Assembly (NCBI GenBank): GCA_947589025.1
Contig: CANQAY010000007.1
Coordinates: forward strand, 2,919 to 66,918
Reading direction: 5' to 3'
Length of the DNA stretch: 64,000 nucleotides
Origin: an uncultured Clostridia bacterium
GTDB taxonomy: Bacteria > Bacillota > Clostridia > Christensenellales > UBA1242
The notes below the pieces were generated by a model. That model saw only the letters and a list, made by a program, of their open reading frames with translations. It had not been told where the DNA came from and searched no databases. This document shows, one piece after another, positions 37,230 to 60,576 of this stretch; within the stretch, counting starts at the first letter, position 1, and each line of letters begins with the position of its first letter. The position numbers were made by a program, and so were the translations under genes.

Positions 37230-37237
37230 AGATAATA

Positions 37238-37633: not shown

Positions 37634-37667
37634 ATGAGGGACAACCAATAAATTGTTTTTCCCTCAT
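37634..37667. repeat. tRNA-spacer hairpin repeat (copy 3, inverted)
   Basis: atgagggacaaccaataaattgtttttccctcat is the exact reverse complement of copy 1. Confidence 0.65.
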
Positions 37668-37889
37668 TGCTCCTTTTCCCTTAAGGTGTAAATAGTGCTT
37701 TATCGTTTGTGAAATTTCACAAACTCTTTTAATGGCCGAAATTTCGGTCATCTATTAGGGGGCAAACCATCTTTTCCCCCTAATAATCCTCCTTTGAAAA
37801 GGATTACATTTTTAACTTATTCTGCCCTTTGTTATCGTTTGTAAATCAAACAAAAAACGCCTTAACGCGAATGTTAGGCGCTTTAGGCA

Positions 37890-37972
37890 TGGTGCGGATG
37901 AAGGGACTTGAACCCCCACGGTCACCCACTAGATCCTAAGTCTAGCGCGTCTGCCAATTTCGCCACATCCGC
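37890..37972 (-). tRNA. tRNA-Leu(TAG), long variable arm
   Basis: GCGGATGTGGCGAAATTGGCAGACGC..CTTAGGA loop..variable arm..GGTTCAAGTCC..CATCCGCACCA. Confidence 0.85.
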
Positions 37973-38039
37973 ACGATTGCAAACTGTGTATTCAATTTGC
38001 AAAATCATTTGCAAATGAGCCAAACCTATGGTAAGGCGT

Positions 38040-38115
38040 TGGTGGCTCATCCGGGACTTGAACCCGGGACACCATGATTAAAAGTCATGTGCTCTACCAA
38101 CTGAGCTAATGAACC
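38040..38115 (-). tRNA. tRNA-Lys(TTT)
   Basis: GGTTCATTAGCTCAGTTGGTAGAGC..CTTTTAA loop..GGTTCAAGTCC..ATGAGCCACCA. Confidence 0.9.
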
Positions 38116-42002: not shown

Positions 42003-42078
42003 GGACCGCTAGCTCAGTTGGTAGAGCAACTGACTCTTAATCAGTGGGTCCGGGGTTCGAGTCCCCGGCGGTCCACCA
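42003..42078 (+). tRNA. tRNA-Lys(CTT), integration target
   Basis: GGACCGCTAGCTCAGTTGGTAGAGC..ACTGA-CTCTTAA-TCAGT..GGTTCGAGTCC..GCGGTCCACCA. Confidence 0.92.
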
Positions 42079-42089
42079 AACAAAAAACT
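42032..42089 (+). repeat. attL core (58 bp: 3' part of tRNA-Lys plus 11 nt)
   Basis: gactcttaatcagtgggtccggggttcgagtccccggcggtccaccaaacaaaaaact is identical to 54656-54713. Confidence 0.9.
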
Positions 42090-42106
42090 ATTTTATAGGT
42101 GATTTA

Positions 42107-42142
42107 GCCACTTTTCAATTTTTTGAAAAAGTGGCATTTTTT
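42107..42142 (+). terminator. Element-borne terminator behind the reconstituted tRNA-Lys
   Basis: gccacttttcaa..ttgaaaagtggc hairpin followed by attttttgtgtttttt. Confidence 0.6.
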
Positions 42143-42161
42143 GTGTTTTTTGCCCAATTTT

Positions 42162-42183
42162 TGGGGTCAAATTTGGGGTCAAA
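42162..42183 (+). repeat. Two TGGGGTCAAA arm-type repeats (12-nt spacing)
   Basis: ttggggtcaaatttggggtcaaac lies between attL and the integrase stop. Confidence 0.65.
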
Positions 42184-42196
42184 CTTTTGATATATA

Positions 42197-43240
42197 TTAT
42201 TTAAATAAATAATATAATTCTCCGTAAAGATTTAAAATCTTTTCTTTTTTTATTGTCCTATCTATAAAAATGTATACTTTTTGTGTTAAATCCACAGTTT
42301 CATGCCCTAACCATGAACTTATTAATTTATCCGGGTTGCCAAGATACCAGTGATTGGTTGTAAAAGTGTGTCTTAATGTGTGTAATTTGCCTTTTATGTT
42401 TAGTGTGTTTAATAATTTCATAAACTGCTTATAAACCTGTCCGCTGCTTAATTTACAAATTTCATTGGCATGTGATTCTATATATTTCGTTGCTGCAGGA
42501 CTCAAATCGATGTATCTATACACCGTTTTATTAAATCTTTTCTTTTCACACTTAATTTTTAACAAATTATTTTCACAATCTAATGCTTTTAACAACTCGT
42601 CTTTTGTTTGCGGTCTCTCATTTTTCCTTACGCCAGTTAGCAGATAAAACATTATTACATGTTCAATAGGTTTTCCCTTTAGGGCCTCAAGTATCCTAAC
42701 TTGTTCATCATATGTAAATGGAGGGTCTATGTTTGATTGTTTTGCGTCTGCAACAAACTCTTCAAACAAATCTTGTTTAATTAGGTTTAAACCCTTAGCC
42801 TTTTTCAACGCGGCCTTAACATAAAGGATAACGAGTTCTTTTGTCCTTGATGGTTTCATTTTGTTAAAAAAGTTTTGTAACATGTCCGTTGTTAAACTAT
42901 TTATATAAATTTTGGCAATTTCGGTGTTGTCGATATGGTTTTTAAAATATCGCTTGATTTCATTTATTGTTCTTGCTTTTATTCGATTGTTGTTTTTATA
43001 GGTATCCGCCCAATAATAACACCAGTCAATAAGCGTATATCTTCTGACCGAGTTAGAAGAAGCATAAATATATTTGTCTTGTTTTAAACGTCTTAGAGCC
43101 GCAATAAGCTCTCTTTGGGTAGGTTTGATAATGGCTTGCCTTACGCCATTGGTCATTTTACGCCATTCCCATCTGCCATCTACTCTTTGTCTAATGTTTT
43201 TCATAATGTCCTTTTCTCCTTTTGATTGAATTAAGGACAT
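42197..43240 (-). CDS. int: Tyrosine recombinase / phage integrase
   Basis: 347 aa. The N-terminal RQRVDGRWEWRK is arm-binding-like. The C-terminal HTLRHTFTTN..WLGHETVDLTQKVY matches box II and the catalytic Tyr. The start may be ATG 43204. Confidence 0.9.
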   Translation of the reverse strand: MSLIQSKGEKDIMKNIRQRVDGRWEWRKMTNGVRQAIIKPTQRELIAALRRLKQDKYIYASSNSVRRYTLIDWCYYWADTYKNNNRIKARTINEIKRYFKNHIDNTEIAKIYINSLTTDMLQNFFNKMKPSRTKELVILYVKAALKKAKGLNLIKQDLFEEFVADAKQSNIDPPFTYDEQVRILEALKGKPIEHVIMFYLLTGVRKNERPQTKDELLKALDCENNLLKIKCEKKRFNKTVYRYIDLSPAATKYIESHANEICKLSSGQVYKQFMKLLNTLNIKGKLHTLRHTFTTNHWYLGNPDKLISSWLGHETVDLTQKVYIFIDRTIKKEKILNLYGELYYLFK

Positions 43241-43405
43241 TCCAAAATAATTTGACCTTGTTTTCCCGCTTTTTATATCTTCTTTATCTATTTTGCCTTT
43301 AATGTAGGCCTGATAGATTTCATTTTCTGCCCGGATGTACTCTAACCTTTCGTTTTGTTTTTTAAAAATTCAAAAATCTTTTCGTATTCTACGCTTTCCA
43401 CCGGG

Positions 43406-43714
43406 CTAATCCTCCGTTAGGCCGGTAACATAAGCTCGCGTTTTTGCCAATTCAAGCTGATTCATTTTTAAAATCTTTTTAATTAAATAGGCCTCGTTAT
43501 CATCTAAGAACTTTAAATTAATAACTTCAGTTTCGCGGCCAACCAATTCGTCAATGCTCACATTAAAGAAATCTGCTATTTTTATAAGAGTTTCAATGCT
43601 TGGGTCATTTCTGCCGGCCTCATAATAATAAAAAGTTGTTTGTGGCATACCCAGTTTTTTAGCAACTTCACTTTGAGACAAATTTAGTTTTTGTCGCAAT
43701 TCTTTTAACTTCAT
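43406..43714 (-). CDS. XRE-family HTH regulator (paralog 2 of a tandem pair)
   Basis: 102 aa. LRQKLNLSQSEVAKKLGMPQTTFYYYEAG is an HTH_3 motif. The C-terminal domain is shared with the neighbour. Confidence 0.8.
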   Translation of the reverse strand: MKLKELRQKLNLSQSEVAKKLGMPQTTFYYYEAGRNDPSIETLIKIADFFNVSIDELVGRETEVINLKFLDDNEAYLIKKILKMNQLELAKTRAYVTGLTED

Positions 43715-44022
43715 TACTCCTCCAACAATCCTGTAATATAGGCCCGTGTTTTTGACAATTCAAGCTGATTCATTTTTAAAATCTTTTTAATTAAGTAAGC
43801 TTCATTTTCGTCTAAGAACTTAAGATTTACTGTATCGCTATCTCTCCCCACCAATTCATCTAGCGATACATTGTAAAAATCAGCAATCTTAATTAACGCG
43901 TCAATGCTTGGACGGCAGGTGCCTTGTTCATAACTGAATAATGTCGTAATTGGAATTTCTAATTTTTCAGATAATTCCCTTTGTGATATTCCCAATTTTT
44001 GTCTAAATGATTTTAAATTCAT
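43714..44022 (-). CDS. XRE-family HTH regulator (paralog 1, CI-like position)
   Basis: 102 aa, about two-thirds identical by eye to the adjacent ORF. It faces the divergent promoter region. Confidence 0.8.
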   Translation of the reverse strand: MNLKSFRQKLGISQRELSEKLEIPITTLFSYEQGTCRPSIDALIKIADFYNVSLDELVGRDSDTVNLKFLDENEAYLIKKILKMNQLELSKTRAYITGLLEE

Positions 44023-44129
44023 AAAAAACCTCCTTTTGTATTCGACATTTGAATTTTACCACTCTGATGTAAAAAAACAATGAATAATAAAAAAATTTTT
44101 AAAATTTTACAAAATTACCGTAAAATTGC

Positions 44130-44157
44130 TTGACATTTTATGTTGTATTCGTAAAAT
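44130..44157 (+). promoter_or_regulatory. Rightward early promoter of the element
   Basis: TTGACA-16nt-TAAAAT. The TGTATTCG operator-like half-site lies in the spacer. A palindrome atttacatt-gat-aatgtaaat follows at 44167-44187. Confidence 0.55.
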
Positions 44158-44218
44158 TAATTATAAATTTACATTGATAATGTAAATACAACCTCCTTTG
44201 TATTCGACAAACAAAGGA

Positions 44219-44620
44219 ATATGGCGCATTTTTCTCCCATTTCGTGTGCGCCATACATGCCGAGATTGAGCCTAAAGCTTAAAATTGGCTTTTAAAAACT
44301 CCGTGGCGCATGCACCCCTAGTGCGCCATACATGCCGAGATTAAGGGAAGAGCCTTAAAATCGGCTTAGCAATCAATCAATTACAATTTTCCCCTTCCCG
44401 CCAGCAATGGCGGTCATGCCCTTAATGGAAGCAAACGGTCGCGCCGGGCCAAGTTCGAGTCTTGGCGAGGGCTATGTGAACTGCTGCATAAACTTATGGC
44501 CAAAGTTAAAAAGCAGGCGGATGATTGAACGTTGTGGAGCCGGCAAATCACAACGTTCCTGTTGTTGGCTAGGAAAAAGCCTTATGCAGTGCAAATCTGC
44601 AAGCCAGCACTTAGGAGGAG
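44219..44620 (+). ncRNA. Structured non-coding leader / candidate ncRNA with two 75-nt tandem repeat units (class unknown)
   Basis: Two units each consist of a GGCGCA..TGCGCC hairpin, the identical 22-mer GTGCGCCATACATGCCGAGATT (44246, 44321) and an AGCC..GGCT hairpin. A GC-enriched block follows with a 10-bp perfect hairpin gaacgttgtg/cacaacgttc and a T-arm-like gccaag-ttcgagt-cttggc. It has no RBS and its translation is Cys/Arg-rich. Confidence 0.5.
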
Positions 44621-44622
44621 TT

Positions 44623-44889
44623 GTGGAAAAGATAAGATTGCAATCGATTGGTTGGCACAATGCCGTCAAAGCAAAAGAACTTAAGCCTAATGATGTTCTT
44701 ATTTGGAATTTTGGTGGCAGAGAAAAAGTTACCAGTGTATTACCTTCAAAAAATGGCAAAACCTTATCCATTGGCATTCAATATAAAAATTTTGAAGGCA
44801 AAACTGTCAATAGCCGAAGAAGGTTATCGGCCAACACGTTGGTTGCCACAGAAAAAGTTAATTCAACAATCATTAAACCAAAATTATAG
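44623..44889 (+). CDS. Hypothetical protein
   Basis: GTG start 4 nt after AGGAGG. This is the real coding part of track ORF 44407..44889. 88 aa. Confidence 0.55.
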   Translation: MEKIRLQSIGWHNAVKAKELKPNDVLIWNFGGREKVTSVLPSKNGKTLSIGIQYKNFEGKTVNSRRRLSANTLVATEKVNSTIIKPKL

Positions 44890-44897
44890 GAGTTTAA

Positions 44898-45329
44898 ATG
44901 AAAAACACCAAACAAAAAGCCAATAAAATTAAGCCAAAAATTGATGTTAAGATTGGACAAACATTAGAGACAAATGATATCTATTTGCCACACGAGAAAA
45001 AAGACAAACCGAAATCAAAAAGCCGCCCAGCAATTGTTGTGGATAAAAACTCCAAACAAGAATTAGTAATTGTGCCCGGCAGCACGAAAAACACACCGAA
45101 TACTACAGAATACAAGAAATATGGAATTCAATATTACCGACACAATATCGAAATCGAAGATAACGAACAGAAGCCGATTAAAGTAAATCAAAAATTTAGA
45201 ATCACCAAAAACTCTACTAAGTTACCGGAGAGTGAAGCAATAAAGATTCGTACCAAAGTTATTGAACATTCAAAATTTTCTAGTGAAAATAGGAAAAAGT
45301 ACAATAAATTTTGGAAAAGAAAAAAGTAG
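44898..45329 (+). CDS. PemK/MazF-like (SH3-barrel toxin fold) protein, tentative
   Basis: 143 aa. IGQTLETNDIYLP..KSRPAIVVDKNSKQELVIVPGSTKN parallels the MazF/PemK GD..V.F....RPAVV......V.P.T pattern. AGGAG RBS. Confidence 0.4.
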   Translation: MKNTKQKANKIKPKIDVKIGQTLETNDIYLPHEKKDKPKSKSRPAIVVDKNSKQELVIVPGSTKNTPNTTEYKKYGIQYYRHNIEIEDNEQKPIKVNQKFRITKNSTKLPESEAIKIRTKVIEHSKFSSENRKKYNKFWKRKK

Positions 45330-45549
45330 AGATTAAACCACTCTACTCAATGCCAAGACTTTCAAGGCGGGTGCTCGCCTAGCACAGAATTATAATTTGA
45401 ACTTATAACCTGTTACGCTATGAGCCTTTTAGATAGCCACGGGCGGAAGTCATTAACTCCACAGGACTAATCTTTGTGGAAGTATAACACTAAATTTTCG
45501 ACTTGTCAATACAAATTTTAAAAATTTTTACAAAAAAAGGACCATTTTA

Positions 45550-45765
45550 ATGGAAAATTTAGAGATTTTGCAAGAAAAATACCGCGATTTAGCCAAAGAG
45601 CACCAACAGCTGCAGCGAGATTACATATTGGTTGTTAAAGACAATGCAAGCTTAAGAAAAGATGTTAAAGCCCTGCGCGAGCTGTTGAATGCAAAACAAA
45701 AAAAAGAATTTGAGCTTAACAAAATTCTGCAAGGTCAAATCGAATTACCTATTGGAGGCAAATAA
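45550..45765 (+). CDS. Hypothetical coiled-coil protein
   Basis: 71 aa with a heptad-rich sequence. Confidence 0.45.
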   Translation: MENLEILQEKYRDLAKEHQQLQRDYILVVKDNASLRKDVKALRELLNAKQKKEFELNKILQGQIELPIGGK

Positions 45766-45990
45766 ATGGAAATTCCCACTCACTTTTGGTTAAGAATTAC
45801 CAAGACAAACAATGAATTCCCCACATCGTTTGCAGATTTTAGCGCTAGACTTGGTAATTTGCGCCGCAATAAAGTTAGTGTTACACCTTTTGTTGGATAT
45901 GATGATTCAACCAAAAAACACGGTATTCGCTGGCAATTGTACGGTGAATATAAAAAATTAAAGAAAAAGGAGGAAGCACCAAATGTTTAA
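45766..45990 (+). CDS. Hypothetical protein
   Basis: 74 aa. The GGAGG RBS lies inside the end of the preceding gene. Confidence 0.5.
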   Translation: MEIPTHFWLRITKTNNEFPTSFADFSARLGNLRRNKVSVTPFVGYDDSTKKHGIRWQLYGEYKKLKKKEEAPNV

Positions 45991-46204
45991 AAAAACAAAG
46001 AAAACCGCCCAAAAAACTAAAGCTAGGACCACGGCAAAGAAAGCTGTAAAACCTGCAGCTAAGAAAACAGCAGTTAGAAAAACAGCCAAGAAAGCCACAA
46101 AACCAGCTGCAAAGAGAACTACAGCTGCAAAAAAGGGCCTACCAAACGAACTTTATATTGTTGATAAAACTGGTCGTGTTTACACCAAACTTGCTAAAAA
46201 ATAA
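45983..46204 (+). CDS. Lys/Ala-rich histone-H1-like basic protein (candidate DNA-coating protein)
   Basis: 73 aa. KKTAQKTKARTTAKKAVKPAAKKTAVRKTAKKATKPAAKRTTAAKK, then a short globular tail. AGGAGG RBS. Confidence 0.55.
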   Translation: MFKKTKKTAQKTKARTTAKKAVKPAAKKTAVRKTAKKATKPAAKRTTAAKKGLPNELYIVDKTGRVYTKLAKK

Positions 46205-46242
46205 GCAAAACACTGCATTTTTGCAGTGTTTGGAGGTTAAAA

Positions 46243-46398
46243 ATGCTAATTGTGAGATATGCAGACAATAATGGTGAAATTAAAGAAATTAATGTTTCAT
46301 CCAAAAATGCGTTCTATGTTTACAAAAATGCAAAGCGCATGTATTTACATGCGGATTTAATTTTAGTTGCAAATGACAAAGAATTTTGTTTAATGTAA
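46243..46398 (+). CDS. Hypothetical small protein (51 aa, below the ORF-track cutoff)
   Basis: GGAGG RBS. Own translation: MLIVRYADNNGEIKEINVSSKNAFYVYKNAKRMYLHADLILVANDKEFCLM. Confidence 0.45.
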   Translation: MLIVRYADNNGEIKEINVSSKNAFYVYKNAKRMYLHADLILVANDKEFCLM

Positions 46399-46407
46399 GG
46401 AGTTTTA

Positions 46408-47442
46408 ATGGTTATACCAGATTACATTGTTAGAAATAACAATTTAAGCCTTAATGCCAAATTTCTTTATGCTTTAATCTTGGAAAATCAAAATAACGGC
46501 GTATGTATTGAAAACAATACATTTTTTGCATGCCGCCTTGATAAAGGTGTAACCGAGCGCACTGTTAGAACTTACATTAAAGAGCTTAAAGACAATGGCA
46601 TTATATTTGTTGGAAGATATAAACAAGCCAAAAATGCCATTTTTGTTATAAATACGCAAGATTATGTTCAAAACACTGTTCAAAAAATTACAAAAGTTGA
46701 TGAAGGTCAAACCAACGTCCAAGAACTGGAAAAAATTTTCCACTTCGCGGAAATTAACGGTCAAAACACCCTAAATTCGACCCCTAATATTAATTATACT
46801 AAAGGATTATATACTTTAGTTTTAGTTAGTAAAGAAAATAAAAATAATAATTATATATCTAAAAGCGCGCGCGTGCGCGAGGAAATTGATAATTATACCA
46901 TTTTTTCAAATTATGATAGGTTGAAAGAATCCGAACGAGCGCCGATATATGACGATAAAAGCCGTGCACACTATACTAACTTGTTGTTTAGGGAGTTTTT
47001 TAAGTGGAATACATCCGGCAAGCTGCACAATGCCGGCATTGAGATTGTTGATACTATAATCGAAGCGTTAAAGCAATCTAATTCATTGTTGGGCTTTAAA
47101 TATGATATGGTAACATACGACAAAAACAATCCTTTTTCAGATTTAGTGTTAAATTTAACTGAAAACGAGTTTACCAGTATTGCCAGCTCTATTGCCTTTA
47201 GGGATGATATAAACAATCGCCCGGCATACATAATTGGGGCCATTGTGCAAGCTGGCACAAAAATAAACTGGAAAAAAGCCGACGAATTAGTGCGCAAAGG
47301 TTGGCCGTGGTCTGATTGGACGCCGACGGATAAAACATTATCCAACGTGTTTTTTGCCACTCAGCATCGGGTTGAAAAAGAAAAACAATATTTGCAATTC
47401 AAACAAGAGTTTGAAAATAAAAATTTAAGGAGGAATCTATGA
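46408..47442 (+). CDS. Winged-helix / replisome-organizer-like replication protein (tentative)
   Basis: 344 aa. N-terminal LSLNAKFLYALIL..TERTVRTYIKELKDNGII is a wHTH typical of phage/plasmid replication initiators. The central linker is low-complexity. Confidence 0.4.
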   Translation: MVIPDYIVRNNNLSLNAKFLYALILENQNNGVCIENNTFFACRLDKGVTERTVRTYIKELKDNGIIFVGRYKQAKNAIFVINTQDYVQNTVQKITKVDEGQTNVQELEKIFHFAEINGQNTLNSTPNINYTKGLYTLVLVSKENKNNNYISKSARVREEIDNYTIFSNYDRLKESERAPIYDDKSRAHYTNLLFREFFKWNTSGKLHNAGIEIVDTIIEALKQSNSLLGFKYDMVTYDKNNPFSDLVLNLTENEFTSIASSIAFRDDINNRPAYIIGAIVQAGTKINWKKADELVRKGWPWSDWTPTDKTLSNVFFATQHRVEKEKQYLQFKQEFENKNLRRNL

Positions 47443-47597
47443 CAAAATTTGAAAAAGCCTTGCTTATCATATTTTGCACCATATTGGCCCTTGTTCTTGC
47501 CACGGTAATAATTAGCTTGGTTGTTGCACATAGCCACAATATTACCTTCGTTGAACAATGGACTGAATGGCTAAAAGCAATGCATTTCATTAAATGA
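47439..47597 (+). CDS. 52-aa single-TM protein (candidate major coat protein)
   Basis: AGGAGG RBS. Its ATG overlaps the upstream stop (ATGA). MTKFEKALLIIFCTILALVLATVIISLVVAHSHNITFVEQWTEWLKAMHFIK. Below the ORF-track cutoff. Confidence 0.5.
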   Translation: MTKFEKALLIIFCTILALVLATVIISLVVAHSHNITFVEQWTEWLKAMHFIK

Positions 47598-47627
47598 CGC
47601 GTTTAAATTATTAAATTAGGAGTTAAT

Positions 47628-48866
47628 ATGTCGAAATTGAAGAAGTTCGGTATTGCCATTGCAGTTTTGTTGTTAATTGTATGTCTAGGTATAAATGTTT
47701 GGTATCTAGGTATTTCTTTCCTTGGCAATGAGAAAATTGTTGCCAACACGTTTGAAGTTGGCCTGCAAAAATTAGAAGACGGCGATACCGACTATTTTGT
47801 AGAGGTCAACTACATGGCAGATATGTTTGAGGTTAAATTCAATTATCTGCTTGACGAAAACAAAACTGCATTCTTCAGCCAAGGCTTACAATTTATGGCC
47901 GACAATACTGGCACAATTCAATTTCCATTTGTTATGGACGATAACCGCTCCCATTGGCTAACAACCGATATACGCGGTTGGGCTGCGTTTACAGAGGGCA
48001 CCTACTCTATTTACCTTGACGGCTATTTAGGCCAAAATACATATAACTACATGTCGGGCGACAATTATGAGAGTGTGCAAAATTCCACCAATCCGTTTAA
48101 CCAAAACAGCCGATTTAAAATAACTTTAGGCGAAGATACTTATTTAATGGCGTTTAAGGGCCATGATATTGGTTATGGAACTACCATTAACAATTATGCT
48201 TACACCACTTATTGGAAAGACACCAGCGCATCATTGATGGACTGGAAACATGATTTCTATTATTCTAGTGACGTTTATTACTTCTGCTATTTGTTATATA
48301 ACGCTTTAAGTACGGTAGAAAACGGAACGAAAAGCCCACACATTTTTGAATTTGGCGATTTGTTCGATTACTATGAGTATGATGAAGGCAGTGCCACATA
48401 CAACGAAAAAGTTAACTTAGATAAAGCTAAATCAATTTCAAAAGACATTCGCTCATACTATTCAATCATGGTTAATAAATCTGCCAATAAAGTGCAAAAA
48501 GCCACCGACAGCTTGTTTAATTGCGTTGGCGGCAATGCCAATTTCAATTTATCAGGTGACTACGCCAGCGACGACTATTACATTGGAAGAACAGTTATTA
48601 CAGCTGGGAACAAAGCTTTTGATTTAGTTAAGGTTGCAGATAACAACTACGCCCTTAAATTAAGAGATGATTTTGTTGCCAAATATATAGATATTGCAGA
48701 TGTAATCTTCTTGCGAGTTGAAATTGACTTAGATTATTACAAAAAGCAAAACATCAATTTTGTTGGCTTTACAGCTGACAGCCATTTGGAGTTGTTTAAA
48801 AATAAAGAAATTCACACTTTGGAAACCAAAAACGGAGATGTGGTTAAAAGTGAGGTGTCATTATGA
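47628..48866 (+). CDS. N-terminally membrane-anchored protein, function unknown
   Basis: 412 aa. MSKLKKFGIAIAVLLLIVCLGINVWYLG is a signal anchor. The ectodomain is Tyr/Asn/Asp-rich. Confidence 0.55.
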   Translation: MSKLKKFGIAIAVLLLIVCLGINVWYLGISFLGNEKIVANTFEVGLQKLEDGDTDYFVEVNYMADMFEVKFNYLLDENKTAFFSQGLQFMADNTGTIQFPFVMDDNRSHWLTTDIRGWAAFTEGTYSIYLDGYLGQNTYNYMSGDNYESVQNSTNPFNQNSRFKITLGEDTYLMAFKGHDIGYGTTINNYAYTTYWKDTSASLMDWKHDFYYSSDVYYFCYLLYNALSTVENGTKSPHIFEFGDLFDYYEYDEGSATYNEKVNLDKAKSISKDIRSYYSIMVNKSANKVQKATDSLFNCVGGNANFNLSGDYASDDYYIGRTVITAGNKAFDLVKVADNNYALKLRDDFVAKYIDIADVIFLRVEIDLDYYKKQNINFVGFTADSHLELFKNKEIHTLETKNGDVVKSEVSL

Positions 48867-50788
48867 TAGCAAAATTATTTGGCACTGATAGCTTCTTAAC
48901 AATGTTAGGAATGCCAAAATTTTGGTTTATAATGGCCATAATTGTTGGCCTTATAGTTGCTTTAGTGTATTGTATAAAATACTTTAAAAGTGGCGGCAAA
49001 TACGTTCTTTTAATTCTATTTACTGTTGCCATGATTGCCTTAACTACTTATAGCGGCGTGCAGCTTTACTACTATTACAATGCACATGGCGGAATATATG
49101 GCGCGCTAACGGGCATATTTAACCCGAATGAAGTTGTTGTTAACGAGTTAAATTATGAATTTAAAAACATTGAGTTAAAAGAAGATGGCGACAACATTTA
49201 TTCGGCAGATATAATTATAAATGAAGTAATGCAGCTGGATAAAGACACAGTTTACGGCGTTTATGTAAACAACATGCCTTGTGACTATGTTGAGAATGCG
49301 CAAGACTACGTAATGGCTGATTACACCTATAAATTTTATGATAGACAAATGTACGAAATTATAGAAGATACATTATCCATAAAATTTGCATTCTACACAA
49401 ACAGCACATTAATAAATATTTCCACCAAAGGCGGCGAAAATGCGGTTAAATATTGGCACTATTATTTAAATAAGAACACGTTTATTGTTACAGTTAAGCC
49501 AACAAATTATAATACTAGTGATTATTTAACTTATAGCAATGGGGATTTATCCAACTATGCCACTTTAACATTTAAATACGACGATAAAACAATTTTATCC
49601 GTTCATCAAAAAGATACCGTTATTACTCTGCCCGAAGCCGACAACAAATGGTTTGGGGGCTGGTACATTGGCGATGAGCTTTATTCAGGCCAATACACAG
49701 TAAAAGACAATGTTACTTTTGAGGCAAAATATAACTACGTTGTTTTGGACCTTGATATACAAAACGAATTAAAAAATATAAAAACATCTCTGCCCGCAGA
49801 ATATGAGTTAACTGGTACACTTACAACTTTAAGTGATTCTTACAATTATGGAGACGTGATTAAAGTTAGCAAAAATGACGAAATGACAATTGACTTAAAA
49901 GTTAATTCAGACTCTGCAGTGTGCTCAAGTATGTCAATGGAAGTTGACACCGACGGCAGCTACACTGATAATTCCCAAGACGGAGCCCTGCAATTAAGCT
50001 GGGAAAACATAACTGAAATTAAAATAGTTATAGTTTTAAACAACTTAGATGTTAACCCCACTTTTGGCTTAAATGACTGGGATACAATTGCAGATGTCAG
50101 TGAGTACATTTCAAATAACAATTTAACCACAGCTGAAATTGAAGCAACTTTTGATTGGCACATTGGTGATGAAAAAGACACCACGGTAAACGTGGAAACA
50201 ATAACGTTATTGATACTTGGTTTTAACCACGATGATTTATCTGACGGCAGCGGTAAAGCTGGAATCAGCTTGGGCATGAAAGACTGCTTGTCAACGACTT
50301 ACTCAATGAACTCGACAGACACAAATGCCGGCGGTTGGGATAAAAGCGAAATGCGTACAAACACAATGGCAACGCTATTATCACAACTTCCTGCCGATTT
50401 GCAAAAAGTTATTAAGACCGTAGACAAAAAAACAACTGTCGGAAATGAGTCCACAGCAATAACAACGTCGAGTGACAAATTGTGGCTTTGTGCCTATGGC
50501 GAGATTGTATCGCCTACGGCAATTGAAAACAGCATTGAAAGAAACATAAGAAACAACGCCGCTGCGTTTAAAAGCGAAGGCTCGCAATATGATTATTATA
50601 AAAATCTTATCGGCGACGCCGACCCTTGGGATAATGGAATAAGGGCCTTAGTTAAAAATTGTAACTATTGGTCACTGCGTTCGCCTAATGTTGAATCTGT
50701 CCAAGGATTTGCCAATATCTTCATGGGATGTGCCTGCTGGACTTTTGCCGATATCGCTTACGGCGTGTCGTTCTGCTTGTGTATTTAA
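48863..50788 (+). CDS. Multi-TM-anchored surface protein with an InlB-B-repeat-like unit and a C-terminal domain shared with the next gene
   Basis: 641 aa with 3 N-terminal TMs. WFGGWYIGDELYSGQYTVKDNVTFEAKYN resembles the Listeria-Bacteroides repeat. The C-terminal roughly 250 aa are paralogous to 50845..51870. Confidence 0.55.
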   Translation: MIAKLFGTDSFLTMLGMPKFWFIMAIIVGLIVALVYCIKYFKSGGKYVLLILFTVAMIALTTYSGVQLYYYYNAHGGIYGALTGIFNPNEVVVNELNYEFKNIELKEDGDNIYSADIIINEVMQLDKDTVYGVYVNNMPCDYVENAQDYVMADYTYKFYDRQMYEIIEDTLSIKFAFYTNSTLINISTKGGENAVKYWHYYLNKNTFIVTVKPTNYNTSDYLTYSNGDLSNYATLTFKYDDKTILSVHQKDTVITLPEADNKWFGGWYIGDELYSGQYTVKDNVTFEAKYNYVVLDLDIQNELKNIKTSLPAEYELTGTLTTLSDSYNYGDVIKVSKNDEMTIDLKVNSDSAVCSSMSMEVDTDGSYTDNSQDGALQLSWENITEIKIVIVLNNLDVNPTFGLNDWDTIADVSEYISNNNLTTAEIEATFDWHIGDEKDTTVNVETITLLILGFNHDDLSDGSGKAGISLGMKDCLSTTYSMNSTDTNAGGWDKSEMRTNTMATLLSQLPADLQKVIKTVDKKTTVGNESTAITTSSDKLWLCAYGEIVSPTAIENSIERNIRNNAAAFKSEGSQYDYYKNLIGDADPWDNGIRALVKNCNYWSLRSPNVESVQGFANIFMGCACWTFADIAYGVSFCLCI

Positions 50789-50844
50789 TAAAACAATTTA
50801 ATATCCGCCCTTGTGGCGTAAAACAAAAATTTTAAGGAGGAAAA

Positions 50845-51870
50845 ATGAAAAAAAGAATTTTAATATTTTCTATTGTTATATTAACAAGCTTGTTATTAGC
50901 TCTTGGCGGAATAGTTGGCTTTTATGTTTACGATAGAAAAAACGGCAACGATTGGTTTGGTCAAGCCAACGCTGCAGAAACTCCGCCAAGCAATATTGCT
51001 GGCACCAGTAAACCGGCCAATGTTAATGCCACATTTGGCTTAAATGACTGGGATACAATTGCGGATGTCAGCAAATATATTTCAACTAACAATTTAACCA
51101 CAGCTGAAGTTGAAGCAACTTTTGGTTGGAAAATTGGCGACAAAAAGGAAATAACCATTTCTGAAACCGATGTTAATGTGGCCGATGACGGCTATCTAAT
51201 GATTATAGGCTTTAACCATGATTATTTATCTAGCGACCACAAAACAAAAGCTGGTATTACTCTACAATTAGCAGGTGGCATGCCTACTACTACCGACGGA
51301 GGTAAAGCATATAATGGTTACAAATTCGCCAATGATGGACAATTTAAAGGTGACTGGTCAACTGTAGAAATGCGTACAACAACTTTGCCTACAATAAAAG
51401 CTGGTTTACCTGCGGATTTGCAAAAGCTTATTAAACCTGTAGATAAAAAATATATAACTACCGAGAATATTATAGGGACTGTAAGTGACGAATTATTTTT
51501 ATTGGCTACCCCAGAAGTGTTTTCTGAAACTTGTTACCCGGGAGATGACTCTACGGTGCCAATTTTAAGCGCTTTTGAAGGTACACAATATGAATATTAT
51601 AAAAATTTCATCGGCGACAGACGTTTTAGTGCAGAATACGAGGATTCTATTGGACTATTTTTATGGAAAGCTTATCATTCCTATGAAAATCAAGTTAAAA
51701 CAGAACATCCCGGTGGGCGCGACGACGGCTGTAGCTGGTGGCTACGAACTATGGCTGAAATAGAGTCATCTACAAAAGCATTTTTTGTAGGAAGTATGTA
51801 TAGCGTTCCTGATTCTGAATTAAACCCTATCGGTTCTAATATTTCAATCTCATTTGCGCTTTGCATTTAA
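50845..51870 (+). CDS. Signal-anchored surface protein, paralog of the C-terminal domain of the preceding gene
   Basis: 341 aa. It shares FGLNDWDTIADVS.YIS.NNLTTAE.EATF, GFNHD, LPADLQK.IK.VDKK, QY.YYKN.IGD, W.LR and the terminal SF.LCI. Confidence 0.55.
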   Translation: MKKRILIFSIVILTSLLLALGGIVGFYVYDRKNGNDWFGQANAAETPPSNIAGTSKPANVNATFGLNDWDTIADVSKYISTNNLTTAEVEATFGWKIGDKKEITISETDVNVADDGYLMIIGFNHDYLSSDHKTKAGITLQLAGGMPTTTDGGKAYNGYKFANDGQFKGDWSTVEMRTTTLPTIKAGLPADLQKLIKPVDKKYITTENIIGTVSDELFLLATPEVFSETCYPGDDSTVPILSAFEGTQYEYYKNFIGDRRFSAEYEDSIGLFLWKAYHSYENQVKTEHPGGRDDGCSWWLRTMAEIESSTKAFFVGSMYSVPDSELNPIGSNISISFALCI

Positions 51871-51883
51871 TTAAGAGGTAAAA

Positions 51884-52702
51884 ATGGCATTTACACATGT
51901 TATAGGAAAACCAAGGCGTGGTAAAACATCTTGGGTGGTGGCTCAGATTATTCAAAACGATTTAAAATATTTTAACAGCAAATATTATGCAGCGGTAAGG
52001 TATATAAAAGATTTTAATAGAAGATACAACACCAATTTAAGTTTACCACCGCAAAGGCATGTTGTGTCTGCCAATATTGATATCCATCGCAGATACCCCA
52101 CAATGTCAAGTTACCCTATTTCGGGTTTTGATTTTGGTGTGCCAAATAAATATCACAAAACAAAAAGGCTTATCCCCTATGGCGTGTACGTTTTTGACGA
52201 GGCCCAAAAATATTTTGACAGCAAGGGAGACAAAGATTTGCCGCCATGGGTAACCCAAGCCTTTGAGCTTAGAGGCCACATATTCCTAGATATTTACTGC
52301 ATTACGCAACGTGATGTGAGATTGCACAAAGATATACGCGAAACAGCGGACAGAATTGTGCTGATTGAAAAATCAATACACACTTTTTTAGTGAACGGCA
52401 GAAAAAGGAAATCGGATAGATTCATAGACGGCAAACTTATTAAAACAACGTTTTATGGCCGAGAATTTGAAACATATGAAGAGGTTGAGGCCTATAAAAG
52501 TGATAAAACAGTTGGCAAAAAAATTAAAGACGAATTTGTTGGAGACATACGAAATTTTTATGACCCTAACAACTTTGCAGTGACAATAGAAGAATATGAT
52601 GGAGATTTTGATTATTACGATTATAGCAATACATTTGGCGAAAAGCCTGCTTCTTGGCGTAATTATAAAAAGAAGCTTGCAAAGGAGGAAAAAGTTGCAT
52701 AA
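51884..52702 (+). CDS. Zot / pI-like P-loop NTPase (filamentous-phage assembly ATPase family), tentative
   Basis: 272 aa with Walker A IGKPRRGKTS, Walker B VYVFDEAQKYF, and ELRGHIFLDIYCITQRDVRLHKDIRE resembling the Zot HRH.G.D...ITQ block. No C-terminal TM. Confidence 0.55.
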   Translation: MAFTHVIGKPRRGKTSWVVAQIIQNDLKYFNSKYYAAVRYIKDFNRRYNTNLSLPPQRHVVSANIDIHRRYPTMSSYPISGFDFGVPNKYHKTKRLIPYGVYVFDEAQKYFDSKGDKDLPPWVTQAFELRGHIFLDIYCITQRDVRLHKDIRETADRIVLIEKSIHTFLVNGRKRKSDRFIDGKLIKTTFYGREFETYEEVEAYKSDKTVGKKIKDEFVGDIRNFYDPNNFAVTIEEYDGDFDYYDYSNTFGEKPASWRNYKKKLAKEEKVA

Positions 52703-53081
52703 CGAAGATAACCTAGACAATATACAAGATTTAGTCCCTATTTTTGCCGATTTCAAAGAATGCACAGAGTATTTTTATGATGAATTAGGCAAATTGGAAG
52801 AAGTGCCTAATTTAACTAATAGAGACAGAAAAAAGTTAAAGAAATGCATAATGTCTTTATTCCATAAGCATTTGGGCCTTTTAAAAACAAAAGACAAAGC
52901 GCAAAGGAAAAAAGAGATTGCTTCGGTTAACAAAACGCTTGCCGAATTGCGAAACGTTAAAAGAAACACCAATGCACGAATTCCAATAAACTCCGCCAAA
53001 CAATTGCCGCCAACTGAGAATGTTGACAAAAAATTGTTAACAGGTGAAGTTGAATCAGAAAACGCGAAGCCTGCTGGTTAA
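52695..53081 (+). CDS. Hypothetical basic protein
   Basis: TTG start 5 nt after AAGGAGG, overlapping the Zot stop. This is the C-terminal 128 codons of track ORF 52596..53081. Confidence 0.45.
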   Translation: MHNEDNLDNIQDLVPIFADFKECTEYFYDELGKLEEVPNLTNRDRKKLKKCIMSLFHKHLGLLKTKDKAQRKKEIASVNKTLAELRNVKRNTNARIPINSAKQLPPTENVDKKLLTGEVESENAKPAG

Positions 53082-53103
53082 TATCTTTAGATATTAATCT
53101 TTA

Positions 53104-53181
53104 AAAATCAAAATAGCAATAAGTGGCAGACACAATATCAGGCAGAATGCCGATTTGTGCTGACACATTGCTTTTGATTTT
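53104..53181. repeat. Long imperfect hairpin (about 78 nt)
   Basis: Outer arms are aaaatcaaaatagcaat / attgcttttgatttt. Inner arms are cagacacaa / ttgtgctg. The apical hairpin is ggca-gaa-tgcc. Confidence 0.6.
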
Positions 53182-53318
53182 AATTTCATTAACAAACGCC
53201 AACTTGTTGGCGTTTCAAAATTGCAAAAAACTTCAAAATTTTCAAACATTCAAAAATTTTGAAAAACAACAAAAAATTAAAAAAATTTTTTAAAAATTCA
53301 AAAAATGGAGGCAAATTT

Positions 53319-53501
53319 ATGATTTTAGAAGAAAAATTAAGGCAAATTCTCAAAAAAAAGCGTTGGACGCAAAATAGGCTGGCCAAGCACATAGGTGTTA
53401 TTCCCTCACGTTTAAACAACTGGTTGCACGGAAAAAGTCATCCAAATGCAGAATGGCTAACGGACAAAATTGACGCATTATATAGCGAATGCAATCGTTA
53501 G
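53319..53501 (+). CDS. Small XRE/Cro-like HTH protein
   Basis: The start is moved to ATG 53319 (GGAGG RBS). MILEEKLRQILKKKRWTQNRLAKHIGVIPSRLNNWLHGK. Confidence 0.6.
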   Translation: MILEEKLRQILKKKRWTQNRLAKHIGVIPSRLNNWLHGKSHPNAEWLTDKIDALYSECNR

Positions 53502-53588
53502 GAGGAATTATGAAATTAGAAGATATATTTACATCGGTTGGTCTCTGCAATTGTGATAATGGAGTAAATGATGCATAGGAGTTTAAAA

Positions 53589-53864
53589 ATGTGTAGTATT
53601 TCTGACAAACCAAAATTTAAAAACAAAAATCGAGTTATAGAATTGCGAGATTCTTTTTCTAAAAATAAGCTACGGATTGATGAATTACCCAAAGATGTTT
53701 TAACGGAATTGTTTGTGGTTGCAGTTGAACGCATTGATGAAAAGGAAAATGGCGGAGAGCATGATGAGCGAGACTGGAAGGACTGCCTTTGCGACAAAGA
53801 ATTTATAATTGATGAGTTGTTCGAAAGGTTACAAGAAAAAGTCAATTTAGGTATTTATGAGTAG
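53589..53864 (+). CDS. Hypothetical protein
   Basis: The start is moved to ATG 53589 (AGGAG RBS). 91 aa, acidic. Confidence 0.45.
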   Translation: MCSISDKPKFKNKNRVIELRDSFSKNKLRIDELPKDVLTELFVVAVERIDEKENGGEHDERDWKDCLCDKEFIIDELFERLQEKVNLGIYE

Positions 53865-53872
53865 GAGGAGTT

Positions 53873-54181
53873 ATGAACAAAGACGAATTATTTGCAAGTT
53901 TAAACGACATAAAAAAGCCTGCCCTAGTATCCATGTATATGAGCTTATACAACAGCCGTGAGGAGTTATTAATTCAACACAAAACGGTTTTAAAGAATTG
54001 GGGCCCGCATTTGGAAGAATTGCGCCAAGCCGTAAAAGATAAAGACCAGCGCATAGCCGAACTTGAAGAAGAAAACTCGAAATTAAATAATTACAACGAA
54101 GAGCTTCGTAAAAATTATGAAAAATGCATTGAATACTGGAAGCTCAAAAATATATGGAGGAACGAAAATGAAAATATTTAG
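53873..54181 (+). CDS. Hypothetical coiled-coil protein
   Basis: 102 aa with AGGAGG RBS. Confidence 0.5.
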   Translation: MNKDELFASLNDIKKPALVSMYMSLYNSREELLIQHKTVLKNWGPHLEELRQAVKDKDQRIAELEEENSKLNNYNEELRKNYEKCIEYWKLKNIWRNENENI

Positions 54182-54470
54182 CAATATAAAATTTTTATTC
54201 TTATTCGCCACCGCCCTAATATGCTGCGCAATAAGTTACCCGTTACTTAATTTAGTTGTACATATTTTAAACGATGGCAACATACTTGCGTCACTAATAA
54301 CCGGGTTTATTGTTGTTCCGCTTGGCATTGGTATATTCATAGCTTCGATTCTCAGTGCTCTAAGCCTTTTTGTTAGAGGTCTAATATTCAAAACCAAAGT
54401 TTGGTGGATTTTGGGTGTGCTGTTAATGTTGGCGAATGTTGGCGCGGTTGTCTATGCTTTTTTAGTGTAA
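54168..54470 (+). CDS. Small 3-TM membrane protein
   Basis: The start is moved to ATG 54168 (GGAGG RBS). 100 aa, hydrophobic. Confidence 0.5.
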   Translation: MKIFSNIKFLFLFATALICCAISYPLLNLVVHILNDGNILASLITGFIVVPLGIGIFIASILSALSLFVRGLIFKTKVWWILGVLLMLANVGAVVYAFLV

Positions 54471-54471
54471 T

Positions 54472-54500
54472 AAAAAAACTAGCGATTGGCTAGTTTTTTC
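54472..54500 (+). terminator. Terminator at the end of the element's rightward operon
   Basis: aaaactagc-gatt-ggctagtttttt. Confidence 0.65.
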
Positions 54501-54508
54501 ATAAACAT

Positions 54509-54577
54509 TGGGGTCAAAAATCAACTGATTTTTTTGATTTTTTGCTTAAAATTTGGGGTCAAAGTTTTGGTCAAAAC
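54509..54577 (+). repeat. TGGGGTCAAA arm-type repeats near attR (two good copies, one degenerate)
   Basis: tggggtcaaa at 54509 and 54554. ttggtcaaaa at 54568. Confidence 0.6.
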
Positions 54578-54655
54578 TATTTTGGAATGCCAATATGTTG
54601 TGTAATTTTTTTATGTTGCATACACGATTTTGTATGCGCTATGTGATACTATGAC

Positions 54656-54713
54656 GACTCTTAATCAGTGGGTCCGGGGTTCGAGTCCCCGGCGGTCCAC
54701 CAAACAAAAAACT
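54656..54713 (+). repeat. attR core (58 bp, displaced 3' part of tRNA-Lys)
   Basis: Identical to 42032-42089. It is followed by actcct-ttaacc-aggagt and a T-run, which looks like the native tRNA terminator (54711-54733). Confidence 0.9.
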
Positions 54714-57740: not shown

Positions 57741-57815
57741 TGGGGTATCGCCAAGCGGTAAGGCAGTGGTCTCTGAATCCACCATGCGGTAGTTCGAATC
57801 TACCTACCCCAGCCA
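57741..57815 (+). tRNA. tRNA-Gln(CTG)
   Basis: TGGGGTATCGCCAAGCGGTAAGGC..CTCTGAA loop..AGTTCGAATCT..TACCCCAGCCA. The T-arm and acceptor are identical to tRNA-Gln(TTG) at 37482. Confidence 0.88.
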
Positions 57816-57864
57816 AAAGCATACCTTTAAAAACATCTATTTTATAGGTGTTTTTTAATATTTT

Positions 57865-57955
57865 TGGGGTCAAATGTTTTACGCCCGAAAATTGCGTTTT
57901 GGCTGAAATTTTGCAAAATTTTGGGGTCAAAAATGGGGTCAAAAATGGGGTCAAA
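57865..57955 (+). repeat. Four TGGGGTCAAA arm-type repeats (three in 12-nt tandem)
   Basis: Copies at 57865, 57922, 57934 and 57946. Confidence 0.65.
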
Positions 57956-58006
57956 ATTTTTTATATTTACTCAAGCCACAAAAAAAGTTAGCACTAGGCT
58001 AACTTT

Positions 58007-58537
58007 TTAATTCACAATATTAAAAAAATTTGAATTTGCATTGCTTACAACTTCGTTTTTAATTTCTTTATCTTCTAGCGTATTAACCGATAAATCAGTT
58101 TGAATAATATTACCAGCAGTTTCATTCTCTTGCTCAGAGGGCAAACAATTTTCCGATTTTGTTATTTCATTATTTTCGTTTAAATTTTCTTGTTGAGTTT
58201 CAGTTTTTTCTTCCACAATTTCAAAATTTTCATCATTTTGGCTTAAATTTTCATCATTTTTTTCAATTTCTGCCTCATTTTTTGCATTTTCTAAAAAATT
58301 TTGTGTGCTCTCATCTGTTTTTGCATTCTCTTTTTCTGTTTCAGTTTTTTGTTTAGATGAAGATTTTGTAGGGTCGTTAATTATGCCAATAACCACCAAC
58401 AAGCCCAAAATTGCAGTTACCACTTCGTTAATGTAAATAAAATCAAAATCTATTCTTAAAGCCCGCAAAATAAGTATTACCGCACTGACAATAGACACCC
58501 AAAAATTATAATTTGTTAGACGATTTTTCCAATTCAT
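58007..58537 (-). CDS. Holin (phiLC3-type N-terminal domain) with a long acidic C-terminal tail
   Basis: MNWKNRLTNYNFWVSIVSAVILIL..LLVVIGIINDPTK matches the phiLC3 holin pattern as I remember it. It is followed by about 115 aa of E/N/T-rich sequence. Confidence 0.55.
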   Translation of the reverse strand: MNWKNRLTNYNFWVSIVSAVILILRALRIDFDFIYINEVVTAILGLLVVIGIINDPTKSSSKQKTETEKENAKTDESTQNFLENAKNEAEIEKNDENLSQNDENFEIVEEKTETQQENLNENNEITKSENCLPSEQENETAGNIIQTDLSVNTLEDKEIKNEVVSNANSNFFNIVN

Positions 58538-58614
58538 ATTTGCTCCTTTTATATAAATTTTTATTTAAAAGCAAATATTGATAATAGATATTAAATCGTT
58601 TAAGCATTTTAAAA

Positions 58615-60575: not shown

Positions 60576-60576
60576 A

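Follow-up and report, generated by a model that had tools for sequence, protein, structure and literature searches.

Inoviruses (Inoviridae/Tubulavirales), which include Ff, Pf4, CTXphi, and the cryptic inoviruses (PMC6813254), encode an ATPase of the Zot/pI family. According to Roux et al. 2019 (PMC6813254), a genuine pI must carry one or two transmembrane domains (TMDs), located at the C-terminal or, in Gram-positive hosts, at the N-terminal; this "atypical" Gram-positive pI lacks the C-terminal extension and has an N-terminal TMD. In this study, we characterized a 12.6-kb integrated element at positions 42,032 to 54,713 of a 64,000-nucleotide stretch of contig CANQAY010000007.1 from an uncultured Clostridia bacterium (the whole stretch is hereafter called the window). 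Our best reading is that the element carries an inovirus-like export module without being a canonical inovirus; its particles may contain single- or double-stranded DNA. We regard it as somewhat probable that the element is an intact temperate, non-tailed, Zot-dependent virus of this non-canonical type, hosted by low-GC uncultured gut Clostridia.

The element shares with Inoviridae a Zot/pI-family ATPase just downstream of a small transmembrane (TM) protein and the large membrane-anchored proteins that follow it, the location of nearly all genes on one strand, and the lack of capsid, tail, and lysis genes. It also resembles the temperate members, in which a tRNA gene is the site of an integrase together with an XRE repressor, and its size is within the 5 to 15 kb range (PMC6813254). 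By contrast, its ATPase is without any TMD, whereas a typical pI has one at the C-terminal and the "atypical" pI one at the N-terminal. The element also differs in being without a rolling-circle initiator, a gene-V-like protein, or a coat protein with a basic tail, and its family instead keeps a histone-H1-like protein and a 412-amino acid core protein with an unmatched fold.

A tblastn search of GenBank phages with the Zot protein gave a single match, Bajarodino virus 12 (PQ006185), a 9,828-bp circular genome from rodent feces that is filed under Inoviridae and for which the literature searched contained no published description. Like the window element, this virus has minus-strand genes for an integrase and a repressor, a set of small genes, an N-anchored protein of approximately 350 amino acids, and a membrane protein of approximately 540 amino acids, followed by a TMD-less Zot protein of 266 amino acids and an acidic partner. 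Its Zot protein matched the family profile at 1.8e-38 and is the only relative among GenBank phages. By eye, the N-terminus of its 541-amino acid protein resembles the 433- to 456-amino acid proteins of two related loci (L027 and L031), and a protein of this virus carries an immunoglobulin (Ig) domain. However, the Zot identity is only 25%, no orf412 homologue is present, and the genome looks richer in G+C by inspection.

Three further systems were compared. The Enterocloster inoviruses (Burckhardt et al. 2023, PMC10061712) are likewise prophages of Gram-positive gut Clostridia with a pI-like gene and direct repeats, and were secreted experimentally as DNase-protected filaments, showing that gut Clostridia secrete inoviruses; they differ in size (6.5–8.5 kb, one 16 kb) and in having passed Inovirus Detector, a comparison made by description only. 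IME1 of Dehalococcoides (Nesbo et al. 2026, 10.64898/2026.09.15.751708), also likened by description only, combines a pI-like ATPase with a tyrosine recombinase, several TM proteins, and replication genes that are not of the rolling-circle type, and occurs both integrated and as circles. For these integrative elements, a nature as non-lytic viruses with dsDNA that bud or form filaments has been proposed. They are larger (21–28 kb), reside in Chloroflexota hosts, use primase-helicase replication, and encode SSV1-VP1-like proteins. IME1 is the nearest conceptual counterpart of the window element. Plasmavirus L2 (Plasmaviridae) has an integrating circular double-stranded DNA (dsDNA) genome of approximately 12 kb and annotated membrane-envelope proteins with signal peptides, and it is released by budding without lysis; its host, however, is wall-less. 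Relationship to L2 was rejected, as the family profiles of Zot and orf412 matched nothing in its open reading frames (ORFs).

Zot-family ATPase and its partner

Two genes form the end of the putative export module.

51884..52702, + strand: Zot/pI-family P-loop ATPase, 272 amino acids, no TM segment (Pfam Zot, phrog_197, PDB 2r2a)
52695..53081, + strand: orf128, conserved partner of 128 amino acids, overlapping the Zot stop by 8 nt, with the motif ECTEYFYDELGKL

A preliminary description of the element, made from the sequence alone, had proposed a Zot/pI-like P-loop ATPase here, and profile searches assigned the protein to this family rather than to another P-loop family. The 272-amino acid protein scored 32.9 bits against Pfam Zot (cut-off 20.3), with no other ATPase family listed, and matched phrog_197 ("Zot-like toxin") at 1.9e-11. 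The Zot family profile also matched PDB 2r2a at 7.4e-7; the entry is listed as "uncharacterized protein", and we take it to be the N-terminal domain of Neisseria Zot. The protein contains the motifs GKPRRGKTS and VFDEAQ, and its Walker A (G13, K14) and Walker B (D105, E106) residues are invariant across 36 homologues. The closest domain is thus Zot and not that of another FtsK/HerA-type ATPase, the distinction drawn by Roux et al. 2019. Judged from its sequence, the ATPase is a genuine Zot-family protein.

TM segments were sought by hydropathy. The maximum 19-residue hydropathy was below 1.6 in 36 of 36 members, compared with 2.05 for the ATPase of the related locus L037, used as a positive control; the Zot ORF leaves no room for an upstream extension. 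The start of the gene after Zot was corrected to TTG 52695 as the most likely codon, and the orf128 homologue overlaps the Zot stop in full-length related loci too.

Membrane-anchored proteins upstream of Zot

Four genes coding for membrane-anchored proteins lie between the replication gene and Zot.

47439..47597, + strand: orf52, small protein with one TM segment, joined to rep through ATGA; candidate for a coat or another membrane component
47628..48866, + strand: orf412, core N-anchored beta-rich ectodomain protein (AF2 pLDDT 86), no known fold match
48863..50788, + strand: orf641, two N-terminal TM segments, Flg_new-like region, C-terminal DUF6273; candidate adsorption protein
50845..51870, + strand: orf341, N-anchored, DUF6273 domain paralogous to the orf641 C-terminus (repeats D3, D5, D7)

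The earlier claim of a 52-amino acid single-TM protein coupled by ATGA, followed by three membrane-anchored proteins of 412, 641, and 341 amino acids, was borne out by hydropathy and ORF overlaps: N-terminal hydrophobic segments were found in all four, and ATGA overlaps join rep344 to orf52 and orf412 to orf641. The order in which a small TM protein is followed by large membrane-anchored proteins and then Zot, which had been compared with that of inoviruses, turned out to be conserved across a large family.

Inovirus major coat proteins carry a basic DNA-binding tail. With 52 amino acids and one TMD, orf52 fits the rule of Roux et al. 2019 for short structural proteins (30 to 90 amino acids, a single TMD) by size and TMD count, and its conserved C-terminal motif W.EWLKAMHFIK also occurs in the related loci L001 and L030. 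Its TM segment is N-terminal, its tail is near-neutral with no basic C-terminus, and its counterparts differ among family members.

orf412 has 104 homologue clusters without a Pfam family, and an N-terminal TM segment was detected in 64 of 64. A known capsid, coat, or spike fold was rejected for orf412, since the confident model had no PDB or BFVD match. PDB sequence searches with orf412 and orf641 were empty, as was a tblastn search of orf412 against GenBank phages. The DUF6273 domain of orf641 matched phrog_37900 at 1.1e-10. The DUF6273 regions of orf641 (50049–50617) and orf341 (51020–51618) share patches of 71 to 87% nucleotide identity. At the sequence level, this suggests a recent duplication or gene conversion between putative receptor-binding domains, and the paralogous domains fit diversification of a receptor-binding domain.

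Replication and DNA-binding proteins

The early genes of the rightward operon encode a replication protein and several small proteins, many of them basic.

44623..44889, + strand: orf88, conserved basic small beta-barrel, GTG start (AF2 pLDDT 86)
44898..45329, + strand: orf143, basic (isoelectric point 10.1), weak MazF/PemK-like similarity; homologues adjoin Zot in other members
45550..45765, + strand: orf71, coiled-coil protein
45766..45990, + strand: orf74, conserved small basic protein
45983..46204, + strand: orf73, Lys/Ala-rich histone-H1/HC2-like protein, isoelectric point 11.2; kept in several members, including distant ones
46243..46398, + strand: orf51, conserved small protein
46408..47442, + strand: rep344, winged-helix replication initiator of replisome-organizer type (phrog_270 1.7e-8, phrog_428 3.8e-8, weak HTH_36)

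rep344 matched the PHROGs "replication initiation protein" families through its N-terminal winged helix, whereas a PDB sequence search was empty and tblastn against GenBank phages gave no match. An exhaustive search yielded 55 relatives, which carry DUF6291, HTH_36, DnaD_N, Phage_rep_org_N, Phg_2220_C, or RP-C domains; the HUH family was found in none of the 55. No HUH or rolling-circle initiator was recognized in the ORFs of the window element (Pfam, PHROGs) or in the precomputed Pfam hits of the related loci examined, and the smallest members of the family (approximately 10 kb) have only a winged-helix protein of approximately 200 amino acids as initiator. Hence, the winged-helix, replication-type protein of the preliminary description was confirmed, but according to PHROGs and the domains of the relatives, it is not a rolling-circle nickase of the pII type. 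The evidence leans toward dsDNA replication and includes no positive sign of a single-stranded DNA (ssDNA) stage; a nickase may have been missed or be supplied by the host.

Between the replication protein and the coat in the inovirus order is an ssDNA-binding protein. The one small basic protein that was modelled, orf88, is of gene V size, but it was rejected as a gene-V-like single-stranded DNA-binding protein (SSB): the model had no gene V match, and its best fold match was eIF5A (E 6e-3, TM score 0.48). No gene-V-like ssDNA-binding protein was found in the element. The Lys/Ala-rich 73-amino acid protein that had been noted as a possible DNA-coating protein is indeed strongly basic and histone-H1-like and is conserved in several family members; its homologue in locus L029 has a weak Pfam HC2 match. 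The C-terminal TM segment of the 541-amino acid protein of Bajarodino virus 12 bears a fused K/R/A-rich tail, which suggests that the basic protein acts on the inner side of the membrane or of the particle.

These results bear on whether the element is a canonical inovirus, with rolling-circle ssDNA coated by an SSB and extruded as a filament, in which the 52-amino acid protein would form the coat and orf412, orf641, and orf341 the tip, while Zot would act as pI. The Zot-family assignment (Pfam, PHROGs, PDB 2r2a), the order of a small TM protein, large membrane proteins, and Zot, the size (PMC6813254), and the filing of the GenBank relative as Inovirus agree with it; so do the existence of Gram-positive pI proteins without a C-terminal extension (Roux et al. 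2019, PMC6813254) and an IMG/VR relative in which the orf412/orf641 module lies beside a P-loop ATPase of the "atypical pI" type with an N-terminal TMD. However, a rolling-circle initiator was not detected in the ORFs of the window element or in the precomputed Pfam hits of the related loci examined, the initiator is instead a replisome-organizer type reduced to 200 amino acids in the minimal members of approximately 10 kb, orf88 has no gene V match, the ATPase has no TMD, orf52 has no basic C-terminus, and a separate histone-like protein is conserved instead. We therefore consider a canonical inovirus unlikely. Of the preliminary identification, the core stands, namely, a Zot-dependent non-tailed prophage with conserved gene order. 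The canonical inovirus details failed in three respects: the ATPase has no TMD, the Rep is not of the rolling-circle type, and no gene V protein was found.

Element boundaries and circular relatives

The ends of the element comprise the following features.

42003..42078, + strand: tRNA-Lys(CTT) (ARAGORN, Rfam), whose 3' 47 nt are part of attL
42032..42089, + strand: attL core, 58 bp, perfect direct repeat with 54656–54713
42136..42183, + strand: P' arm, two tandem TTTGGGGTCAAA arm-type repeats; L001 attP arranged likewise
42197..43240, − strand: tyrosine integrase, 347 amino acids (Phage_integrase, Phage_int_SAM_3, phrog_1 2.8e-27)
54507..54575, + strand: P arm with arm-type repeats ATTGGGGTCAAA, TTTGGGGTCAAA, and TTTTGGTCAAAA
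54656..54713, + strand: attR core, 58 bp, direct repeat of the attL core

The tRNA-Lys(CTT) gene is the integration target, and the perfect 58-bp repeat that had been described around 12.6 kb was reproduced at both positions; it consists of 47 nt of the 3' part of the tRNA and 11 nt more. Arm-type repeats are present on both sides of the att core.

A close relative provided the attachment site. L001 is a 14,830-bp ENA contig whose Zot protein is 83% identical to that of the window; its ends overlap by 55 bp, and its integrase lies downstream of Zot. A contig from a separately deposited metagenome-assembled genome (MAG), L012, is 100% identical to L001 but broken elsewhere and crosses the end-to-start junction, so that the two sequences imply a circle of 14,775 bp. 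The right end of the window element (up to the core) and its left end (from the core) map to adjacent positions of L001 that share a 47-bp tRNA-Lys 3' half, with the same arm repeats on both sides; this junction is the predicted attP. In a second circular member, with 57% Zot identity, L010 spans the end and start of a 13,432-bp JGI contig, and the attP is the 3' half of tRNA-Lys(TTT) with AAAGTTTAGTCAAAA repeats on both sides. The predicted circular attP junction was thus found in two relatives, but no excised form was found for the exact window element, whose Zot gene was present on only three short low-coverage contigs; the empty attB was not found in JGI metagenomes either.

The integrase next to a tRNA 3'-end duplication and the attP of circular relatives are those of a tRNA-integrating tyrosine-recombinase prophage or element, and they support a bounded, tRNA-integrated, self-mobilizing element. 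The lack of an excised copy and of an empty site would also be expected of a decaying, non-functional remnant. This is extremely improbable, as the two att repeats do not differ, every gene is intact and has a good ribosome-binding site, the catalytic residues are conserved, and the relative with 83% Zot protein identity is circular. With its perfect att repeats and intact genes, the element is intact.

The family in uncultured gut Clostridia

The window element belongs to a large uncharacterized family of 10- to 15-kb elements, which are probably gut viruses without tails or lysis. At least 83 clusters of Zot homologues were obtained, nearly all metagenomic and often on contigs of 10 to 15 kb, and a genome scan revealed 16 loci in gut MAGs assigned to uncultured Clostridia, with rabbit, human, mouse, and chicken as sources and several of the MAGs labelled Christensenella, Catabacter, or Candidatus Caccovivens. 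The architecture of a small TM protein, large membrane proteins, and Zot was constant in the 16 MAG loci and the metagenome contigs; full-length loci have an integrase and an XRE gene 8 to 10 kb upstream of Zot, and members adjoin tRNA-Gln, tRNA-Leu, and tRNA-Lys genes. orf412 homologues accompany Zot in most complete loci, and in a second subtype orf412 is replaced by a protein with a signal peptide and a C-terminal TM segment. The histone-H1/HC2-like protein, orf88, orf51, orf143, and small TM proteins are the conserved small proteins of the family. At tRNA-Gln(CTG), locus L011 (537–1800) has a Zot protein 84% identical to that of the window but an integrase only 34% identical, indicating that integrase modules are swapped between close relatives.

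The one orf412 relative in IMG/VR, L037 (IMGVR_UViG_3300006147_000609, 5805–14694), is a variant element that encodes serine recombinases and an S24 repressor resembling LexA. Alongside orf412- and orf641-like genes, it has genes for an N-anchored protein whose C-domain is of the tail-fibre type (phrog_4492, 4.6e-32), two small TM proteins whose tails are basic, and a 478-amino acid P-loop ATPase with an N-terminal TMD, which is only weakly Zot-like (phrog_197 2e-3; hhalign 4e-3). Through L037, the membrane-protein module is connected with phage receptor-binding domains and with two architectures of pI-like ATPase. Ectodomain proteins of relatives carry leucine-rich repeat (LRR), Ig, or tail-fibre domains, and we counted the virus-type adsorption domains, namely, the phrog_37900 match of orf641, the tail-fibre C-domain of L037, and the Ig domain of Bajarodino virus 12, in favour of a virus.

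The same surface domains could be read differently. Flg_new, LRR_5, and DUF6273 are typical of Firmicutes surface adhesins, the ATPase is soluble, the replication protein is of a plasmid/phage dsDNA type, and the family is almost absent from virus catalogues, as would suit a non-viral integrative element that is driven by its integrase and whose late operon is a surface or adhesin island or an unrecognized cell-to-cell DNA-transfer apparatus with a Zot-like translocase. However, relaxase, VirB4, and coupling protein families were not matched in the element (Pfam, NCBIfam), so it lacks the hallmarks of conjugative or mobilizable elements; no cell-wall hydrolase or LPXTG-type anchoring was found in it; Zot is the only family match of the ATPase; no plasmid relatives were found; equivalent proteins of relatives carry tail-fibre and phage Ig domains; and one relative was deposited as a complete circular viral genome. 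We regard a non-viral element as decidedly unlikely.

Tailed-phage features and the neighbouring prophage

No terminase, portal, capsid, tail, or lysin family was matched in the element ORFs by Pfam or PHROGs, in line with the preliminary description, whereas the same tools did score holin, capsid, and portal in a neighbouring prophage. The terminase, portal, HK97-fold capsid, and tail of Caudoviricetes are therefore missing from the element. The neighbour, a tailed prophage at window positions 57741–64000, begins at the right of tRNA-Gln(CTG) (57741–57815), approximately 3 kb from the element; it codes for a holin (58007–58537), an SU10-type capsid (60915–62090), and a P22-type portal (62622–63884), and its integrase is outside the window. 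Its arm repeats are TTTGGGGTCAAA at 57863 and 57920, followed by AATGGGGTCAAAA twice. The earlier observation that the element and this prophage share arm repeats held: TTTGGGGTCAAA occurs in both, with six matches in the window versus 1.07 expected. The common arm sites suggest related integrases or excision cross-talk.

This proximity raises the alternative that the element is a capsid-less satellite, excised with and packaged by the tRNA-Gln tailed prophage. The shared TTTGGGGTCAAA motif and the lack of a recognized excisionase in the element would suit a satellite, and the layout of phage-inducible chromosomal islands (PICIs) resembles its integrase-repressor-rep left half. By contrast, the conserved 5-kb module of Zot and membrane proteins has no role in capsid piracy, and terS, capsid-remodelling, and packaging-site genes, the marks of PICI-like elements, were not matched in the element (Pfam, PHROGs). 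In addition, the same architecture occurs at many different tRNAs, and no tailed-phage genes were called in the 10-kb flanks of five loci. The arm motif goes with the integrase type: among the relatives, it was found only in L001 and L012, so that it marks a related integrase and not dependence on the tailed prophage. A satellite is thus very improbable.

In the host context upstream, RNase P RNA (class A) and a six-tRNA cluster are located on the minus strand (window 17184–17526 and 36909–38115).

Regulatory region and non-coding blocks

The remaining features of the element are as follows.

43406..43714, − strand: XRE/CI-type repressor 1, 102 amino acids (HTH_3 1.1e-19, phrog_8)
43714..44022, − strand: XRE/CI-type repressor 2, 102 amino acids, tandem paralogue (HTH_3 3.6e-15; repeat D1, 74% nucleotide identity)
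44023..44199: divergent control region containing AT-rich palindromes; best rightward promoter TTGACA-16-TAAAAT at 44130–44157
44200..44420, + strand: structured non-coding leader in which a two-hairpin unit occurs twice in tandem (repeat D8; fold z-score −3.79)
45330..45549, + strand: hairpin-bearing non-coding block (fold z-score −2.49)
53082..53318: hairpin and AT-rich repeat block (repeats D2, D9); candidate terminator, promoter, or origin
53319..53501, + strand: small helix-turn-helix (HTH) regulator (XRE/Cro-type), 60 amino acids (HTH_19/HTH_3); ATG 53319 and ribosome-binding site read directly
53568..54181, + strand: orf98 and orf102, variable accessory genes
54168..54470, + strand: polytopic small membrane protein, 100 amino acids, ATG 54168; L001 homologue 73% identical
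54470..54502, + strand: terminal hairpin, terminator-like (inverted repeat I3)

Pfam and PHROGs, ribosome-binding sites, and a promoter scan bore out the integrase, two tandem XRE repressors, divergent promoter region, and approximately 17 rightward genes described previously; most of these genes have GGAGG-type ribosome-binding sites. The best promoter in the divergent region is sigma-70-like and near-consensus, and the two repressors, this rightward promoter, and the integrase together were counted as evidence of a temperate mobile element. The repressors are a tandem duplication with 74% nucleotide identity over 197 nt, and close relatives such as L001 have one copy.

The unit of the leader (approximately 220 nt, downstream of the early promoter) reads ATGGCGCA...TGCGCCAT, then GCCGAGATT...GGC. 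The leader has no Rfam match, and its motif was absent from related elements and loci; its possible roles are those of a DNA origin or of an RNA acting in antitermination or other regulation. An Rfam scan of the element returned only the tRNA, and NCBIfam and PADLOC scans gave nothing informative. A 36-nt sequence in the 5' part of rep (46460–46495) recurs with 81% identity at 53080–53115, in the AT-rich block after orf128, and this pair is a possible set of initiator-binding or origin sites.

Gene starts were corrected to GTG 44623 for the 88-amino acid gene, ATG 53319 for the HTH gene, and ATG 54168 for the last membrane gene. A 160-amino acid ORF at 44407–44889 was rejected as an over-extension, the conserved gene being the 88-amino acid GTG-start protein. 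Between the HTH gene and attP, L001 (10324–11040) and L027 (11992–12801) carry N6/N4 DNA methyltransferase cargo; at this position, the window element has three small genes of no assigned function.

Discussion

We propose the following life cycle for the element as a non-canonical, Zot-dependent temperate virus. The XRE repressors would keep the element silent, and derepression would lead to excision. The circle would then replicate as dsDNA from an origin bound by rep344, which would recruit host replisome components. The late operon, consisting of orf52, orf412, orf641, orf341, Zot, and orf128, would put the small TM protein and the N-anchored ectodomain proteins into the cytoplasmic membrane, and the soluble Zot ATPase would dock onto these membrane proteins, being itself without a membrane anchor. 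Like pI in filamentous phages, it may use ATP to assemble DNA-containing particles and to export them across the membrane without lysing the cell. The ectodomain proteins (Flg_new and DUF6273 in the element; LRR, Ig, or tail-fibre domains in relatives) could serve as adsorption proteins, and the conserved basic proteins orf73, orf143, and orf88 could neutralize or coat the DNA.

Several points weigh against this interpretation. None of the 36 Zot homologues, nor the Zot protein of Bajarodino virus 12, has a TM segment; the family thus lacks the TMD that Roux et al. 2019 require of a pI, and the coupling of the ATPase to the membrane is pure inference. A convincing major coat protein was not found, other members carrying different small TM proteins, and orf412 had no structural relative among viral proteins (BFVD). 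A profile scan of IMG/VR yielded no Zot relative and a single relative of orf412; the missing TMD may explain the former. The absence of an excised copy of the window element and of the empty attB counts on the same side.

A bolder, rather doubtful extension is that the family is a distinct lineage of temperate gut-Clostridia viruses apart from Tubulavirales, with theta-type dsDNA replication, histone-H1-like condensation, non-lytic Zot-driven budding or extrusion, and particles studded with membrane-anchored proteins of an unseen fold. If true, Gram-positive bacteria would have their own equivalent of the proposed IME1 viruses and of particles of the plasmavirus or pleolipovirus type.

Hardly any non-tailed, non-lytic viruses are known from Gram-positive gut anaerobes, and detection pipelines depend on a pI with a TMD. 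The family has probably been missed systematically by these pipelines, because it does not have this TMD, is all but missing from IMG/VR, and is matched by a single GenBank relative. It joins the export ATPase of filamentous phages with dsDNA-type replication and a histone-like protein, which raises the questions of whether export by Zot-type ATPases extends beyond ssDNA filaments and how a soluble pI homologue is coupled to the membrane.

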